NCBI GenBank assembly: GCA_038064515.1 | Contig: JBBTSY010000004.1 | Location: 32,585-96,584 of the forward strand | Length of the DNA stretch: 64,000 nt | Reading direction: 5' to 3' | Source of the DNA: Patescibacteria group bacterium | GTDB taxonomy: Bacteria; Patescibacteriota; Minisyncoccia; 2-02-FULL-40-12; GWA2-44-9 | Shown: positions 28,357 through 61,250 of the stretch, piece by piece | Numbering within the stretch: the first letter of the stretch is position 1 | Layout: the number at the start of each line of letters is the position of its first letter | Position numbers and translations under genes: made by a program | Notes under the pieces: model-generated | The model's input: only the letters and a program-made list of their open reading frames with translations | Databases searched by the model: none | What the model was told of the DNA's origin: nothing

Positions 28357-28775
28357 TGATCTGGCTCGCCGAGGCAGTACACACCAGAGAGAGTACGACA
28401 TCGCCGCCTACTGGCGGTGTGTCTCGTTCTCGCGCCAGTTGCACTGCGAAAGCCTCTCCTAGGGGTATACTGTTTCGGTTCACTTTTAGATAAATTAGCA
28501 AAAAAAAGGCCTGCGAGACAACACACGCAGACCAAGGACGGGCGACAGGACGGTATGAATTGGAGAAAAAACGAGCCACCACACGTCGCACCAGGTGGCC
28601 CAGCGATGGTTATTAAGGAGGCAGGGACCTCCCTAACTCCTCGGATGCCGCTCCAAGGATAGAGCAGATTAGCCGGTTCCCCCTGCCCGACTTGAGGGCT
28701 CTCTTGTATCCCTCGAGAGACTGCGGGTGCTTACGCAGTCCAGGCCTCCGTACCGCCCGTCAAACAGCGGCCGAT

Positions 28776-28907
28776 GAGGCCCGAAAAAAGCCAACAACTA
28801 CTTCAACTTCAGCTATCACTAGGAGAAATCTTGCTATATTCTTAACAGTCTATGAGTTCTTACTTGAATACTGGAAATAGCGTATTTACTGGCTTTTTTC
28901 GGGCCTC
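28776..28907. repeat. Perfect 17 bp inverted repeat (GAGGCCCGAAAAAAGCC / GGCTTTTTTCGGGCCTC) enclosing a 98 nt AT-rich loop
   Basis: Arms at 28776-28792 and 28891-28907. It lies in a 600 nt GC-rich non-coding region downstream of the ftsQ-like gene. Confidence 0.6.
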
Positions 28908-28973
28908 TTGCGAAGCCCAATATGAAAGGAACTACCAACCAGTACAGTATAGCATACCCAGCTATAATGTCAA

Positions 28974-32683: not shown

Positions 32684-33142
32684 TTATTTTACCTCGACGA
32701 GTTTATATTCAGTCGTCCCTTTCGGAGTTTTCACTTGAATTAGATCGCCTTTCTTATGGCCCAGGAAGGCGCTCCCTAAAGGAGATTCATTTGAAATATA
32801 GCCTTCCTGGGGATTCGATTCGGCAACTCCAACAATAACAAACCGCTTTATGCCGGCTTTAGATTCTACCTTGACGCTCGAACCGACGTTTACCGTGGTG
32901 CCGCCGCGGCCGTCGCCAATCAGGATCGCTTTCTCAAGAATCGATTTAATTTCTTCGATACGGCCTTCGTTGAGCGACTGGGCTTCTTTCGCCTCCGCAT
33001 ACTCGGCATTCTCGGAAAGATCACCAAGCTCCTTTGCTTCCCGTATGCGCGTAGCAATTTCGGGACGCAATACATTAGTCCGTTTTTCAAGTTCTTGCCC
33101 AAGTTTTTCGAGGCCCTCTTGGCTAAAATACTGGTTATTCAT
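32684..33142 (-). CDS. greA: Transcription elongation factor GreA
   Basis: Coiled-coil N-terminus and an FKBP-like C-terminus. The start is MNNQYF at 33140-33142. Confidence 0.85.
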   Translation of the reverse strand: MNNQYFSQEGLEKLGQELEKRTNVLRPEIATRIREAKELGDLSENAEYAEAKEAQSLNEGRIEEIKSILEKAILIGDGRGGTTVNVGSSVKVESKAGIKRFVIVGVAESNPQEGYISNESPLGSAFLGHKKGDLIQVKTPKGTTEYKLVEVK

Positions 33143-33263
33143 CCCGTATGAAGCAGTACAGACCAAAGCGGATCACCGCTTCAGCGTATACTGCGTAAGT
33201 TATGCAACATATCAAAACTACATTTACGAACCCGCTAGGGCTGCTTCTAACGGGATTCATGAT
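33139..33263 (-). promoter_or_regulatory. Conserved 5'-leader RNA element, copy A: a 14 bp long-range helix whose 3' strand abuts the greA AUG
   Basis: In mRNA sense: AUGAAUCCCGUUAGAAGCAGCCCUAGCGGGUUC ...73 nt... CUGUACUGCUUCAUACGGGAUGAAU. A homologous element with compensatory changes is at 47684-47803. Confidence 0.5.
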
Positions 33264-33317
33264 ATGGTAATGGTCTACTCTAGCTGGTTTCCTTAAAAAT
33301 GTAAACCCCCCAGCTAT

Positions 33318-40863: not shown

Positions 40864-41742
40864 TTATTGATTAAGGAGAAAGGTCTCCAAAGCGAGACGA
40901 TGATTGTATTGCGGTTGAGAAATAATATGTTTAAGTCTCAAAAGTCCCTTGATGGCACGATGCGCTTTTTCGTCATCGCGCAGATGCGCATGAGCCCATC
41001 GTAACCAGTAGTCTACGGCGTGAGCATATTCCTCTTTCTCGTAGAGTTTCTTGGCATATTGAAGCCGCTCCGCCACACCCTGGCTTGATACTTTTCGAAA
41101 ATCACGAATTGCCGTTCGAACATCATCAATTGATCCCGATTCGATCGTACGGATAGCCCAACCCAGCCTTCCATTTGCAATTTCAGTAACCAGCGCGCTC
41201 GTTTCATTATCTGCTTTCTTTGAGGCGAGCATTTTTTTAATAACCTCATCAGTATGCGGTAAAAATGGAACTTCCTGACATCGAGAAGTAATCGTAGGAA
41301 GCAGCTGTTTGGGCTGTGAGCTAATTAGAAGTAACGTGGAATAAGGCGGGGGTTCCTCTAAAACTTTCAACAGCGCATTAGATGCTTCAATCGTCAGGCG
41401 ATCGGCATCGTCAATAATCACGAACTTATAGGGGCCCGCCAGCGGTTTTCGAGATATAAAAAGATTCACTTCTCGAATATCGTCGATGTAAATTTTCGAC
41501 TCACCCTCATTCACTCGCGGCCCGATTACCAGCCGGTCTGCATCAAGTACCGATGCGGAATCAGGATTGGCTAAACGACAGAGTTCTTGGGCGAATTTTC
41601 TCTTGCCGATCATTTCCGGACCGGAGAAAAGATATGCGTGGAGAAACCGATCTTTTTTAAGAAGATTTTCGAAGTAGCTCTTTTGAAATTCGAATCCGAT
41701 CGTGTGCCAATCCATAGAACCCATCTCAATAATACTTTTCAT
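40864..41742 (-). CDS. holB: DNA polymerase III delta-prime subunit
   Basis: HAYLFSGPEMIGK and the SRCQ sensor. The first 9 codons (MKSIIEMGS) lie inside the MITE-like element. An alternative start is MDWH at 41713-41715. Confidence 0.7.
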   Translation of the reverse strand: MKSIIEMGSMDWHTIGFEFQKSYFENLLKKDRFLHAYLFSGPEMIGKRKFAQELCRLANPDSASVLDADRLVIGPRVNEGESKIYIDDIREVNLFISRKPLAGPYKFVIIDDADRLTIEASNALLKVLEEPPPYSTLLLISSQPKQLLPTITSRCQEVPFLPHTDEVIKKMLASKKADNETSALVTEIANGRLGWAIRTIESGSIDDVRTAIRDFRKVSSQGVAERLQYAKKLYEKEEYAHAVDYWLRWAHAHLRDDEKAHRAIKGLLRLKHIISQPQYNHRLALETFLLNQ

Positions 41743-41922
41743 GCCGAAATTTCAGGATTATGAGCGAAAAGAGTGAAGAGTGAGGAAGCAGAGTGGTACT
41801 CTGCTGACGAGATCTGATCTCTTTGCAGCCAGAATCCTGAAATACATTCAAGCTACTACCTGCAGTATTTCGTCGCCTTCGCTCCTCAATTGCAGGCGAA
41901 AGGGTGTTATTGAGATGGGTTC
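41716..41922. mobile_element. MITE-like palindromic element, copy 1 (207 bp), with 16 bp perfect TIRs AGAACCCATCTCAATAA / TTATTGAGATGGGTTC
   Basis: Near-identical to 60015-60174 except for a 47 bp internal insertion. It also carries nested internal inverted repeats (tttcaggatt/aatcctgaaa). Confidence 0.75.
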
Positions 41923-43118: not shown

Positions 43119-43745
43119 TTATGCCGACGTAGTTCGATCCGGCAACGGCTTCACTTGACCGCGAGCAACCCTCATCTTCAGATCATGGAAGATTTTCCAT
43201 TGAAATACTGCCCCGAGCATGGCTAAACATCCGCCCAGCAGAAACAAATTTTCAAAACCATATCGTTGCGCTAAAAATCCCCCCAATGAGGCGGCAACTG
43301 CCGCAGAAACACCGATCGCCACCGACTCAAACGACCATTCAATATTTTCCTGCATTTTATCGATATGCCGAGTAAAAATAGCAAACCAAGGTGGCACCGC
43401 GAGCGCTAAACTAATGCCGTAAATCGCCTGGATAATATAGATATGATTCGCGGTACGGGCGAAGAAATAGAGAAATGGTACCATGGCGGCCAGCGTGCTA
43501 CCGGCAACAAGCGAGTAAAAATCATCGTACTCACCATGGTTTTTATCGAGATAGTGCGCTACAGGAATTTGAAACACCACTTTGAAAATTTGCGCGATTG
43601 CTGTAGCAAAGCCAACAACTTCTAAAGATCCATTATTGATTTGCTGAGTAATGAAAACGGCGAACACCGGGGCAAAGACAGAAAAACCGGAATTAATGAG
43701 AAAGTCGGAAGTAATGAGAACCCTCACCGTGTGGCTGATTTTCAT
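43119..43745 (-). CDS. Half-size MFS-like transporter (6 TM). It may be a truncated MFS gene.
   Basis: 208 aa with 6 TM helices resembling one MFS repeat. Confidence 0.4.
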   Translation of the reverse strand: MKISHTVRVLITSDFLINSGFSVFAPVFAVFITQQINNGSLEVVGFATAIAQIFKVVFQIPVAHYLDKNHGEYDDFYSLVAGSTLAAMVPFLYFFARTANHIYIIQAIYGISLALAVPPWFAIFTRHIDKMQENIEWSFESVAIGVSAAVAASLGGFLAQRYGFENLFLLGGCLAMLGAVFQWKIFHDLKMRVARGQVKPLPDRTTSA

Positions 43746-43765: not shown

Positions 43766-43864
43766 GCCCCGCCCTCTGGGCACACGAATCAACATTTAGC
43801 CTAAGCAACCGGTGTATCAAGTAAGCTATAGACAATTATTGTTCATGAGCTTAGAGGGCGGGGC
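43766..43864. repeat. 12 bp GC-rich inverted repeat (GCCCCGCCCTCT / AGAGGGCGGGGC) around a 75 nt AT-rich loop
   Basis: It lies between the subtilase stop and the MFS-like start. The 3' arm in minus sense is followed by UUUUAUG. Confidence 0.55.
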
Positions 43865-46402: not shown

Positions 46403-47686
46403 TTAGCGAGATTTGCCATAATGAGCAACCAATCCGGCTATTCCCCACCACATGAGTATCCCTTGCTGAAGCGTCCAAAAGAAATGATCAAAGACACCAA
46501 TAAAGATCAGGGAAACGAACATGCCTGCTATGAAGAGCCGCTCGAGATCAAACTTCGCCGCCCGAAAAAAACTGATAATTATCAATGCCAGCCAACTGAT
46601 AAACGCGGCAATACCTAAAATACCCAGCTCCGCATAGATGAGCAGATAAATATTATGAGCCGGCTGGTACAGTTCGCGAGGCAATCCTGGCCGGTACTTC
46701 ATAAGCCAGGGAACAAAATTTCCGATACCCAGGCCCAAACTGATTTTCTGATGGCTATGGAGCGCCTGCGAATTATAATATTGTCGCAGAACGATCGTTT
46801 CATCAGTCGGAGCTATAGTTAAGCGTCCTACAATATCTCCCCAAAATAAAACCGCGAATAACCCGCCTACCGCAACCGTTGTCAGTGCCATGCGCCATAA
46901 CTTTTCAAGATCACCGCGATAGCGCCCAAGCCAAAAAATAATTCCCGCGCTGACAAGTAATACCCAAGCGAAAATAATCGTTCGTGAGAATGTGGCGAAA
47001 AATCCAAAAAGAATAATTGCGTATGTTACATGCCATATCCGATCATTCACCCGTTTTTTGTAGCGGACATAAAGAATATACAAGCTCCCCAAGCCGAGAA
47101 AAAGATACGTCGCCAAAATATTCGGATGCGGCGTTGTGCCATAGGCACGCATTATTTTTTCTCCGGCTTCATTGTAGAAAACCGCCACCCCCCTCATGTC
47201 GGGACGCAACACGCTTTCACCCAAATATTGAAGATTGATATCGGCTTGGCGAATAAATTGCACTATTCCCAATCCGGCCTGAAATACGCCGCCTAACCCA
47301 ACCGCCATCAACATTGCCGCCGGTGATGCGACTTCGAAAGATCTATGTCGCATGTAGAAATACAGGAGGACGCCTTCGGTAAGTTTCCCAAACCGATACC
47401 AACCAATCTCCGGCTTAAGTAATCCTATCAACGATAAGCCCGCTACCAAAACGAACAGCGTGAGCGCCACAGAACTCCACGTGGGCCAGGCAAATGACCC
47501 CCTTTTTTGCCACAGCCAAAGGATCAGGATTACCGCTAAAAGGAGGTCGGTCCCATAGAGCGCAAAAGAAACATACTCATTGAAATACCAGGATGACGAG
47601 TAGAGGATAATGCGGGCTTGAAACGGAATGGCGGCAAGAAAAAAAAGGAGAAAAAACCGCTCAATTTTTTGAAACCACTGTTTCAT
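46403..47686 (-). CDS. O-antigen ligase (Wzy_C/WaaL)-like polytopic membrane protein
   Basis: PAHNIYLLIYAELGILG motif and about 10 TM helices. I place the start at MKQWF (47684-47686); the ORF track extends to 47695. Confidence 0.65.
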   Translation of the reverse strand: MKQWFQKIERFFLLFFLAAIPFQARIILYSSSWYFNEYVSFALYGTDLLLAVILILWLWQKRGSFAWPTWSSVALTLFVLVAGLSLIGLLKPEIGWYRFGKLTEGVLLYFYMRHRSFEVASPAAMLMAVGLGGVFQAGLGIVQFIRQADINLQYLGESVLRPDMRGVAVFYNEAGEKIMRAYGTTPHPNILATYLFLGLGSLYILYVRYKKRVNDRIWHVTYAIILFGFFATFSRTIIFAWVLLVSAGIIFWLGRYRGDLEKLWRMALTTVAVGGLFAVLFWGDIVGRLTIAPTDETIVLRQYYNSQALHSHQKISLGLGIGNFVPWLMKYRPGLPRELYQPAHNIYLLIYAELGILGIAAFISWLALIIISFFRAAKFDLERLFIAGMFVSLIFIGVFDHFFWTLQQGILMWWGIAGLVAHYGKSR

Positions 47687-47803
47687 CCCGTACAAAGCAG
47701 TACAGAATCGGATATAGCTCCGTACCGGCGATTATAAAATTTACTTGGCATAGCGCAGTTTTGATTAATGAACCCGCTAAGGCTACTTTGTATGGGATTC
47801 ATT
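47684..47803 (-). promoter_or_regulatory. Conserved 5'-leader RNA element, copy B (homolog of 33139-33263)
   Basis: In mRNA sense: UAAUGAAUCCCAUACAAAGUAGCCUUAGCGGGUUC ...63 nt... CUGUACUGCUUUGUACGGGAUGAAA. The 5' end overlaps the permease stop codon and the 3' end is the ligase start. Confidence 0.5.
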
Positions 47804-60014: not shown

Positions 60015-60174
60015 AGAACCCATCTCAATAATGCTTTTCATGCCGAAATTTCAGGATTATGAGCGAAAAGAGTGAAGAGTGAGGAAGCAGAGTGGTACTC
60101 TGCTGACGAGATCTGATCTCTTTGCAGCCAGAATCCTGAAATTGCAGGCGAAAGGGTGTTATTGAGATGGGTTC
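60015..60174. mobile_element. MITE-like palindromic element, copy 2 (160 bp), with 17 bp TIRs
   Basis: About 99% identical to copy 1 apart from the 47 bp indel. Its right TIR overlaps the ftsW stop codon. Confidence 0.75.
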
Positions 60175-61250
60175 TAAGTATGCTTGGATATGTTCAATAT
60201 AATACCGATACCGCTCAAGAGCGCGAGCGTTGCGGTACCGCCATAGCTCACAAAAGGAAGCGGTAGACCGGTAAGAGGCCCCAGGCCGGTTACTGCGGCA
60301 ATATTAATAAACACTTGCACCACGATCCAAGTAGCGATTCCCATCACATAAAGCTTAGCGAATTTATCAGGCGCTTTTTTCGCAATCTGCGCCATGAAGA
60401 AAGCAAGTAATAAAAATAGGGATATAAGGACACCTGCCCCGATTAATCCTAATTCCTCCACAATTACGGCGAATATCGAATCTCCCACTGCTTCAGGCAG
60501 AAAACCGAACTTTTGAGTGCTCTTCCCGAAGCCGACGCCAAAAACTCCACCAGAACCGATCGCAATTAGGGACTGATTGAGTTGGTAAGAAATGCCTCGC
60601 GGGTCAAAAGAAGGATTCAAAAAAGTCTTCACGCGATTCAGTCGATAGGGCGCTAAGAAAATCAGTCCCCCACCGATGAGCAAACCGATAAGGATCATGA
60701 TAGCAAAGTCTTTCCAGCGCACTCCAGCCACCAGGTAAACTCCCAGCGCTATCGCGACAACAATAATAAGCGTTCCCAAATCCGGCTGGAGCATCAGTAA
60801 TAAGCCAATAAATCCAACTACCAGAAAGAATGGAATGATTCCATATGTCCAATTTTTTATCCTATCATTGCGCCCCCCAAACCAGGCGGCAAAATAAATG
60901 ACAAGGGCCAGTTTAATAAATTCCGCGGGCTGAAACGTTTGTCCGAAAACTTTGATCCAGCTCTGCGCATTATTGATTTTCAATCCCACTCCCGGAACAA
61001 ACACAAGAATCATGAAAGCCAAGGCTCCAAAGAGAATTGGCAAAGAAAATTTACGCCAATATTTATAGTCAATTTTTGACAAAATTACCATCACGAGGAG
61101 ACCGGGCACTACCGCAAATAAGAACTGGTGTTTTACGAAAAAATATGCGGAACCGAATTGCTTTCCCCCCTCGATAATCCCCGCTGAAGATAGCGCGACG
61201 AGCCCAAACGCTATCAGTGTAATGGTCGTCCAGAGTAGCTTCTTATCCAT
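60174..61250 (-). CDS. ftsW: SEDS-family peptidoglycan glycosyltransferase FtsW/RodA
   Basis: 10 TM SEDS pattern. It sits adjacent to mraY. Confidence 0.85.
   Translation of the reverse strand: MDKKLLWTTITLIAFGLVALSSAGIIEGGKQFGSAYFFVKHQFLFAVVPGLLVMVILSKIDYKYWRKFSLPILFGALAFMILVFVPGVGLKINNAQSWIKVFGQTFQPAEFIKLALVIYFAAWFGGRNDRIKNWTYGIIPFFLVVGFIGLLLMLQPDLGTLIIVVAIALGVYLVAGVRWKDFAIMILIGLLIGGGLIFLAPYRLNRVKTFLNPSFDPRGISYQLNQSLIAIGSGGVFGVGFGKSTQKFGFLPEAVGDSIFAVIVEELGLIGAGVLISLFLLLAFFMAQIAKKAPDKFAKLYVMGIATWIVVQVFINIAAVTGLGPLTGLPLPFVSYGGTATLALLSGIGIILNISKHT

Follow-up and report, generated by a model that had tools for sequence, protein, structure and literature searches.

In a 64,000-nt stretch of DNA from a Patescibacteria group bacterium (contig JBBTSY010000004.1, positions 32,585 to 96,584; hereafter the window), the minus strand directly upstream of greA can fold into a long-range helix that reaches the greA start codon, and an initial annotation took this region for a conserved leader RNA that sequesters translation initiation. 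The question raised by this locus is whether we are dealing with a dedicated regulator of greA or with a sequence of another origin. Comparison with related genomes favours the second answer: the "greA leader" is, with a probability of roughly 0.6, one copy of a family of small non-autonomous elements resembling MITEs (miniature inverted-repeat transposable elements), which carries a coupling relay open reading frame (ORF) and occurs in Candidatus Yanofskybacteria-type bacteria of the candidate phyla radiation (CPR). Taken separately, the identification as a mobile repeat is very probable and the relay-ORF coupling mechanism has slightly better than even odds. The insertion appears to be tolerated at greA, rather than acting as a dedicated greA regulator.

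Anatomy of the two copies in the window

The copy in front of greA (w1) comprises 114 nt of the minus strand (33142 to 33255, TCCCGTTAGAAGCAG...CTGCTTCATACGGGA), and its last base, the A at 33142, is also the A of the greA start codon. Folding and arm alignment place its terminal inverted repeats, which form the 5' and 3' arms of the helix, at 33241-33255 and 33142-33156, respectively, and sequence comparison locates at 33228-33242 the module AGCCCTAGCGGGTTC, typical of the subfamily that we call A1. In w1 this module is an imperfect internal third copy of the arm end (CTAGCGGGT vs CTAACGGGA), able to pair locally with the 5' arm. The element is preceded by an ATGAA (33256-33260), read as the ancestral greA start codon with the left TGAA duplicate, and followed by the right TGAA duplicate (33138-33141), which together with the terminal A rebuilds ATGAA as the present greA start. 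From the upstream ATG a relay ORF of 41 codons without internal stop (33135-33260) runs through the element to a UAA at positions +6 to +8 of greA. All these features lie on the minus strand, where the locus reads ...TAGAGTagaccattaccatatcATGAA|TCCCGTTAGAAGCAGCCCTAGCGGGTTC...GGTCTGTACTGCTTCATACGGGA|TGAATAACCAG..., as does a promoter-like site at 33277-33305 (TTTACA-17-TAGAGT) with homologous promoters in the related loci L001 and L004; the upstream AUG is about 10 nt from the predicted transcript start and has no Shine-Dalgarno sequence.

The sequences quoted in the initial annotation are indeed present on the minus strand, and its coordinates are about 3 nt generous at the 5' side. It had also taken the final AUG as the greA start, and the homologues bear this out: GreA proteins with 73-99% identity have their N-terminus (MNNQYF or MQNQYF) at this very position, giving a minus-strand coding sequence of 152 aa (32684-33142) with its ATG at 33142-33140. 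The ORF list of the window stretches greA to a TTG at 33166 (32684-33166), inside the 3' part of the element (MVCTASYGMNNQYF...); since the homologues place the real start at the ATG at 33142, this TTG is a miscalled start.

The second copy (w2; 47686-47797, minus strand, 112 nt, TCCCATACAAAGTAG...CTGCTTTGTACGGGA) is inserted in the TAATGAA stop-start overlap between a gene of the Trp/Tyr-permease family and a Wzy_C (O-antigen-ligase-like) gene, the minus strand reading ...gagaaTAATGAA|TCCCATACAAAGTAGCCTTAGCGGGTTC...TTCTGTACTGCTTTGTACGGGA|TGAAACAG... at this locus. Its relay ORF (47683-47802, minus strand) has 39 codons; the AUG overlaps the permease stop (UAAUG) and the UGA overlaps the start of the Wzy-like gene (AUGA). 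A module and a start context common to the two copies had been reported; the window contains the shared blocks AGCCYTAGCGGGTTC and CTGTACTGCTTNNTACGGGATGAA two times each, at these places only, and for the second block the expected number of chance matches in the window is 0.

Helix formation and covariation of the arms

In both window copies, and in the relatives described below, the ends can form a long-range helix, of 14-16 bp in w1 and w2, whose 3' arm in the window ends at the downstream start codon. The w1 helix (CCCGUUAGAAGCAG / CUGCUUCAUACGGG) consists of 12 Watson-Crick pairs around a 2x2 mismatch, with extra U-A and A-U pairs at its outer end that involve the A and U of the greA AUG, so the proposed overlap with the initiation region is real. 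This helix is part of the minimum free energy fold of w1, at -48.5 kcal/mol (z = -5.6; none of 200 shuffled sequences was as stable). In w2 the arms (CCCAUACAAAGUAG / CUGCUUUGUACGGG) form 12 Watson-Crick pairs, one U.G pair and one A.C mismatch, and the fold with paired ends reaches -32.3 kcal/mol (z = -2.2). The claim that w2 has different arms that still pair holds as far as the pairing goes, but the A.C mismatch beside the G.U pair had gone unmentioned. In agreement with the earlier statement that no known RNA class matches, Rfam 15 at gathering threshold found only a tRNA-Gln in the whole window and none of its families at the element, and matches at the locus up to E <= 10 were at chance level. 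A resemblance of GCGGGTTCG to tRNA was also considered and dropped, as ARAGORN and Rfam gave nothing.

Over the 14 elements of the family, 95% of the arm cells are paired and 11 of 16 pairs have changed on both sides, against 36-43% paired in slid controls. The arms measure 14-19 bp, with 13-15 of 15 positions complementary in every element; most elements were ascertained by that feature, and the five found by sequence similarity alone (w1, w2, L005, L010, L013b) have complementary arms as well. Copies whose interiors differ by 30-40% retain intact arms, and arm changes are compensated within subfamily A1, which suggests that complementarity is maintained; either selection at the level of the transcript or mobility by a mechanism that reads a folded single strand could lie behind this upkeep. 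Covariation was thus rightly noted, but it is not by itself proof of RNA function, because mobile elements with terminal inverted repeats also have complementary ends and most members were found via this complementarity. The accompanying argument from strand-specific wobble does not survive the comparison: the first 15 helix positions of the 14 elements contain 3 G.U and 4 A.C mismatches on the sense strand, and the extended arms 10 and 12, respectively. With A.C as frequent as G.U, there is no RNA-specific signature.

The element family in related genomes

Relatives (0.7-1.5 Mb) were surveyed by sequence (nhmmer), inverted-repeat and covariance-model searches, the sample consisting of 80 greA-centred loci and five found by exact protein look-up (loci are given here by L numbers). 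The inverted-repeat scan, which called TCCC...GGGA pairs at a spacing of 95-140 nt when 13 or more of 15 positions were complementary, returned 16 hits and 0 at control distances; relaxing it to 12/15 gave 18 hits against 1-2, and 11/15 brought only noise-level additions. A seed-based scan open to inverted repeats of any kind produced 269 hits, mostly due to chance, which were left out of the statistics. A covariance model built from six copies, the check proposed in the initial annotation, recovered the same set of elements, with further copies beyond the window and none added within it. A third copy came from nhmmer in another species (L005:18305-18418), and a pattern scan of metagenomes returned seven loci, three of them real (L008, a duplicate of the L005 copy, and the new L010 and L013) and four due to chance; the exact pattern TCCC..AGCCYTAGCGGGTT..TGTACT had 0 matches in representative genomes, which do not include the host species.

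The family obtained in this way has 14 distinct elements of 106-136 nt with TCCCG...CGGGA termini (w1, w2, L005, L010, L013a, L013b, L016, L021, L025, L027a, L027b, L028, L032 and L035), all in Yanofskybacteria-like loci and within about 0.35 Mb of carrier genomes; GreA comparison likewise puts the window's organism among Candidatus Yanofskybacteria. The elements share termini of about 15 bp, 5'-TCCCGYWMGA...TCKWRCGGGA-3', and their interiors split into subfamilies, with identities of 58-70% within A1 and at random level between subfamilies. The AGCCYTAGCGGGTT module is specific to A1 (w1, w2, L005, L010, L013b, L025), L021 having a diverged, inverted version, and most elements contain an internal CGGGA/T site. 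As nothing outside the arms is conserved across subfamilies, there is no candidate for a ligand-binding core.

Empty sites and target duplications

The gene order of the window, mreB-mreC-mreD-PBP2-greA-lysS-serS, is that of its closest relatives, which allows filled and empty sites to be compared. The PBP2-greA spacer measures 175 nt in the window and in the 99%-identical L007 and 46-80 nt, without the element, in L001, L002, L004, L095, L098 and L099; L096 also lacks the element, the spacer there being unrelated in sequence and about 160 nt long. A leader conserved at greA, as initially proposed, is contradicted by these seven closest greA loci. The promoter-like sequence TTTAC(A/T)-17-TA(G/A)AGT is common to the window and relatives (L001, L004), and the empty greA sites contain ATGAATAAT or ATGAATAAC (last base also T) once; where L002 (...ATGAATAATCAG) and L095 (...ATGAATAACCAA) have a single ATGAAT, the window has ATGAAT-element-ATGAAT. 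L001 is also empty at the site orthologous to that of the L005 element and has ATGAATGAA only once there.

A perfect 4-bp direct repeat abuts TCCCG...CGGGA in nine of the 14 elements (TGAA in seven, TGGA in L021, TTGA in L010) and is decayed or absent in the other five. The flanks may alternatively be read as a 2-bp duplication with A...T termini. An IS200/IS605-type insertion, with the target on the left only and a matching right end belonging to the element, was rejected as less parsimonious because from copy to copy the right tetranucleotide changes together with the left one (TGAA, TGGA, TTGA).

Elements at orthologous sites can be unrelated, whereas elements at different sites can be similar. 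L021 and L025, both at greA, are 52-56% identical (random level) between flanks of 77-78%, and the A1-like interior of L021 is inverted relative to L025; L027a and L035, both at the mreC/D junction, are 55% identical between flanks of 69-83%. L028, at greA, shows 73% similarity to L035, which sits at another site, the gene after mreC; the greA copies in more distant lineages have a different subfamily or orientation. It follows that different subfamilies have repeatedly settled at the same few sites, most of all at greA. Although sampling was greA-centred, neighbouring genes were sampled equally often; they are rarely occupied, while the greA start carries an element in five lineages (w1, L021, L025, L027, L028), in different subfamilies or orientations.

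Position at start codons and promoters

In 13 of the 14 elements, L010 being the exception, the last A of the element and the next TG make up the start codon of the host gene. The host genes are greA (five copies), lysS, an ftsQ-like gene and Wzy_C (one each), a 175-aa gene after mreC (two) and small unknown or partial ORFs (three; L005, L013a, L013b). A leader specific to greA is hard to reconcile with this list, the same type of element preceding unrelated genes and most copies having target-site duplications. Four copies occupy ATGA or TAATG stop-start overlaps, and insertion there means that the TGAA duplication copies stop and start alike. For comparison, ATGAA is the start of 18 of the 61 genes of the window, and 86 TGAA sites lie wholly between genes; under a null model in which intragenic insertions are lethal, the chance that seven of seven TGAA insertions fall on starts is about 5e-6.

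The L010 element (1281-1392) duplicates the TTGA of a TTGATT-16-TATAAT promoter. Other Patescibacteria harbour related CCCCG...CGGGG elements, which likewise duplicate TTGA and restore -35 boxes (TTGACT or TTGACA). The TTGA duplication thus rebuilds the promoter as the duplication elsewhere rebuilds start codons. The TTGA-flanked related elements observed are L032:16536-16656, L091:7972-8100, L052:1318-1388 and L010:1281-1392; in L010, L032 and L091 the right TTGA belongs to a -35 hexamer (TTGACT, TTGACA, TTGATT) with TATAAT 15-17 nt downstream, and the L052 copy is followed by no evident -10 box.

Relay ORFs and translational context

All seven sense copies with an upstream ATGAA possess an ORF that passes stop-free through the element. 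The frame from the upstream ATG has no stop in w1, w2, L013a, L013b and L027a, and in L005 and L035 the sole relay stop falls within the 3' arm (UAAcgggAUG); the other two frames contain 1-8 stops, around four on average. With shuffled interiors, openness of a single copy has a probability of 0.08-0.24, and the joint probability is 2e-6. None of the six elements lacking an upstream ATG in that position is open (Fisher p = 0.005 for ATG presence vs openness), and among copies lacking the upstream AUG only L016 has an alternative relay ORF, a 45-codon open frame starting at an ATG 12 nt upstream of the element and stopping 8 nt before lysS (P = 0.04).

The relay stops are located in an AUGA overlap (-4) in four copies, 4 nt before the AUG (UAAcgggAUG) in two, and at +6 to +8 of the gene (8 nt in) in w1 and in L075, a copy of another family described below. 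The distance between the two AUGs (element length + 4) is 1 or 2 mod 3, never 0, in all open copies. The ORFs, of 36-50 codons, share only the arm-encoded N-terminus MNPVR(S/N/D), and the frame in which the conserved 3' DNA is read varies between copies, so that it is openness that is conserved and not a peptide. The repeat family, its insertion polymorphism, the duplications, the position at start codons and the open frames are all directly seen in the genomes.

A comparable arrangement occurs in an unrelated family (CCCAGTAA...TTACTGGG, 130-141 nt) at the start or promoter of serS in two other Patescibacteria (L075:15974-16114, L094:15977-16106). L075 displays a TATG duplication and a 50-codon ORF with its stop at +6 to +8 of serS, L094 has a 45-codon stop-free ORF, and in both an ATG abuts the 5' end of the element. 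As for the host, the upstream regions of 59 ORFs in the window mostly lack Shine-Dalgarno sequences, and many genes show either a TANNNT -10 box 6-9 nt before the ATG (leaderless type) or ATGA/TAATG overlaps. Judging from these sequence features, translation in this organism appears to rely on leaderless-type initiation and on stop-start overlaps.

A proposed mechanism and the points against it

From these observations we infer the following course of transposition, transcription and coupling. Insertion would take place at T(G/T)(A/G)A and duplicate these 4 bp, and the landing of w1 in the TGAA of the greA ATGAAT would be the reason why the start codon is now present twice. The upstream copy would retain its native promoter-proximal context, devoid of a Shine-Dalgarno sequence, and the downstream copy, made of the element's A and TG, would head greA; the long-range helix would be the two termini of the element paired in the transcript. 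An AUG behind 118 nt of structured RNA would presumably have no ribosome recruitment of its own in this translation system. Ribosomes may instead begin at the upstream AUG, read the 41-codon relay ORF through the element while melting the helix, stop within a few nucleotides of the greA AUG and reinitiate, by termination-reinitiation and/or coupling through RNA unfolding. Both kinds of coupling are well documented and work only over short stop-start distances such as those seen here (PMC12548453, PMC10666635, PMC6728339), and coupling is efficient within a stop-start range that matches the relay stops found here (PMC10666635, PMC12548453). Because a lone AUG would not recruit ribosomes, the old AUG stands in its native context and such coupling is documented, it may well be through the relay ORF that the host gene stays expressed, and insertions would survive only if their frame is open. 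For copies without a relay ORF, cleavage of the hairpin by an RNase is a plausible complement.

Several observations weigh against this account. L025, L027b and L028 (at greA) and L032 (at the ftsQ-like gene) have neither an upstream AUG nor an open frame, and coupling is no explanation for the translation of the host genes of these four copies. The helix starts 3-4 nt after the upstream AUG and, as modelled, would hinder initiation there unless translation starts co-transcriptionally. Arm covariation inside one subfamily (GTTAG/CTAAC vs GTACG/CGTAC) would not be expected if a transposase recognised double-stranded ends. Searches for an autonomous partner or a transposase with these termini came up empty: about 1.5 Mb, consisting of genome fragments only and hence weak evidence, contained neither matching termini 400-4000 bp apart with a duplication nor solitary termini beside a transposase. 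The interiors differ by 30-40% even in one genome, which is old for an active MITE family, and old interiors combined with intact arms, duplications and frames point to selection after insertion and leave room for a host function. Finally, neither random insertion nor simple tolerance accounts for the occupation of greA in five lineages.

Alternative explanations

In the view closest to the initial annotation, the element would be a dedicated or domesticated cis-regulatory RNA, whose helix sequesters the start, is opened by a signal (for instance temperature, a ligand, a protein or GreA-dependent elongation) and thereby controls the translation of greA and other genes. A stable helix over the A and U of the AUG, the presence of the element at greA starts in five lineages, the 95% arm complementarity kept even where the duplication has decayed (L025, L028, L027b, L032) and the internal CGGGA/T site of most elements, which could pair alternatively with the 5' arm, are all compatible with such a switch. 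We nevertheless consider it unlikely, given that the element is absent from the seven closest greA loci and its host genes are unrelated, that no sensing core is conserved and the interiors vary both between subfamilies and at orthologous sites, that the local alternative hairpin is not retained in w2, that G.U pairs do not outnumber A.C mismatches on the sense strand, and that duplications and empty sites mark arrival by insertion. The same helix might act as a processing signal, the paired termini being cut by a double-strand-specific RNase that leaves the AUG at or near the mRNA 5' end for leaderless translation. The exact end of a near-perfect 15-19 bp helix at the AUG in 13 of 14 elements, the leaderless-type starts that the organism appears to use and the precedent of RNase III cleavage at Neisseria Correia elements (PMC10969869) agree with this idea, which would also account for expression of the four copies without relay ORF. 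As a general explanation it is quite improbable, since it leaves unexplained why the upstream AUG is retained and why the frame is open when that AUG is present.

Two further readings concern the segment between the arms. An inverton, in which a segment flanked by inverted repeats flips the relay ORF between open and closed and makes translation phase-variable, would suit an inverted-repeat-flanked segment of about 110 bp directly at gene starts and the L021 copy at greA, whose A1-like interior runs opposite to that of L025, with an intact upstream ATG and in-frame stops. The arms and interiors of L021 and L025 differ far more than their flanks, however, which indicates separate insertions and not one flip; empty sites and duplications point to transposition, no recombinase was seen nearby, and independent assemblies of the same species show one orientation (w1 and L007; L004 and L005), all of which makes inversion very improbable. 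That the ORFs of 36-50 codons encode functional peptides (MNPVR...) is more remote still: their openness, AUG start and common N-terminus MNPVR(S/N/D) speak for it, but the shared residues merely translate the conserved 5' arm, the remainder is unrelated, conserved 3' DNA is read in different frames among copies, and gene callers leave the ORFs uncalled in L004, L005 and L007. We rejected this reading because the peptides are unrelated outside the arm-encoded residues.

Comparison with known elements and coupled genes

The family described here resembles MITEs in its size (106-136 bp), its lack of transposase coding capacity (the only frame being the unconserved one of 36-50 codons), its terminal inverted repeats, the 4-bp duplication in nine of 14 copies, and the dispersed copies with filled and empty sites; it departs from them in that no autonomous partner was identified and copies are not near-identical (58-70% for A1 interiors). 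Bacterial MITEs transcribed into mRNAs include the Correia/nemis elements of Neisseria, ERIC/IRU of enterobacteria and RUP/BOX of pneumococci (PMC10969869). Like these, the present elements belong to a size class of about 100-150 bp, have terminal repeats that would form a hairpin in the transcript, lack a transposase gene, occur in multiple copies per genome and show insertion polymorphism; the known MITEs affect expression of neighbouring genes (PMC10969869). Unlike Correia elements, which duplicate TA, the present family has TCCCG...CGGGA termini and a 4-bp T(G/T)(A/G)A duplication, and unlike the bacterial MITEs named it combines low copy number and high divergence between copies with a position, in nearly every copy, on a start codon that is duplicated, a stop-free frame leading from the old start to the new one. 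Rickettsia palindromic elements persist by remaining translatable, according to a passage in PMC10969869 that cites Ogata et al. 2000, and the two cases have in common a reduced genome and palindromic mobile DNA that lets host protein synthesis go on. Those elements lie in frame inside coding regions and become part of the host protein with a conserved peptide, whereas the present ones lie at the start codon, out of frame, and form a separate upstream ORF without peptide conservation.

Hairpin-coupled gene pairs such as VII/IX of phage f1, coat-lysis of MS2 and rpmI-rplT, and pairs that reinitiate at ATGA/TAATG overlaps (PMC12548453, PMC6728339, PMC10666635), also have a downstream start without its own ribosome-binding site in or near a hairpin and an upstream ORF ending within a few nucleotides of it; the relay stops here are within a few nucleotides of the start or overlap it by 1-8 nt. 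What sets the present case apart is that its upstream ORF is no gene but the inserted repeat's own body, and that the target duplication made the layout in a single step. Riboswitches and other 5' leader regulators share with w1 a structured 5' region that occludes the initiation codon, and differ from it in orthologous conservation, specificity for a gene family, a conserved core and Rfam matches, conservation in the present elements being in the helix ends (TCCCG/CGGGA). Our literature searches found no description of an element layout with start-codon duplication and a relay ORF. The position at the start codon, regeneration of this codon by the duplication plus a terminal base, and the separate relay ORF are what sets the family apart from Correia, ERIC and Rickettsia palindromic elements.

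More tentatively, and with rather less than even odds, these elements could represent a class of CPR mobile elements adapted to or targeting translation starts, whose hairpin would give the host or the element a handle on the translation of essential genes (greA, lysS, serS), and which together with their CCCCG...CGGGG kin would be 'signal-regenerating' transposons of compact genomes with leaderless mRNAs. If the proposed mechanism is true, selfish DNA persists in compact CPR genomes by regenerating the start codon and staying translatable, the elements provide indirect evidence, for organisms that resist culture, that initiation in Yanofskybacteria is of the leaderless type with coupling and little use of Shine-Dalgarno sequences, and the copies constitute a natural set of relay ORFs with which to study termination-reinitiation across a strong hairpin. 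For annotation the warning is twofold: a structured, covarying 'leader' in a metagenome-assembled genome can turn out to be a mobile repeat, and start codons beside such elements are easily miscalled.

Other inverted-repeat features

Longer repeats were seen in the left flanks of some elements, where 10-14 nt of the element 3' end recur (CTAAYGGGATGAAT at L004:18419-18437 / L005:18286-18304; ACTGGGTATG at L075:15964-15973). They could stem from conversion between repeats, the footprint of an earlier copy or a longer duplication.

The window contains other inverted-repeat features. A hairpin of about 113-140 nt with the terminal helix GAGGCCCGAAAAAAGCCAG.../...CTGGCTTTTTTCGGGCCTC lies on the minus strand at 28774-28909, between the ftsQ-like POTRA gene and a PMT glycosyltransferase gene, and occupies the same syntenic position in six genomes (the window, L017:13399-13538, L029:8434-8546, L052:10192-10304, L095:7560-7684 and L096:10702-10821). 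Its consensus has 23 pairs, six of them changed on both sides, with G.U pairs valid on the minus strand only, and no Rfam match; we regard it as a candidate conserved structured RNA. Another inverted-repeat element, GAACCCATCTCAATAA...TTATTGAGATGGGTTC with an internal ATGAAAAGYATTATTGAGATGGG in each copy, is present on the minus strand at 41720-41912 and 60019-60174. The former copy has an extra internal segment of about 38 nt and reaches into the beginning of the DNA polymerase III delta' gene (40864-41742), covering its first codons, so that the annotated start may be element-derived; the latter directly follows the stop of the gene at 60174-61250 and precedes a terminator. A 97-nt element of the CCCCG...CGGGG group (43767-43863, CCCCGCCCTCTGGGC...GCTTAGAGGGCGGGG) is situated immediately upstream of the -10 box (TACAAT) of the gene at 43119-43745, at the expected -35 position. 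Among the relatives, L099 has an ORF of 320 aa (976-1938) with a weak match to RVT_1 (reverse transcriptase), between the DNA polymerase III delta' and frr genes.

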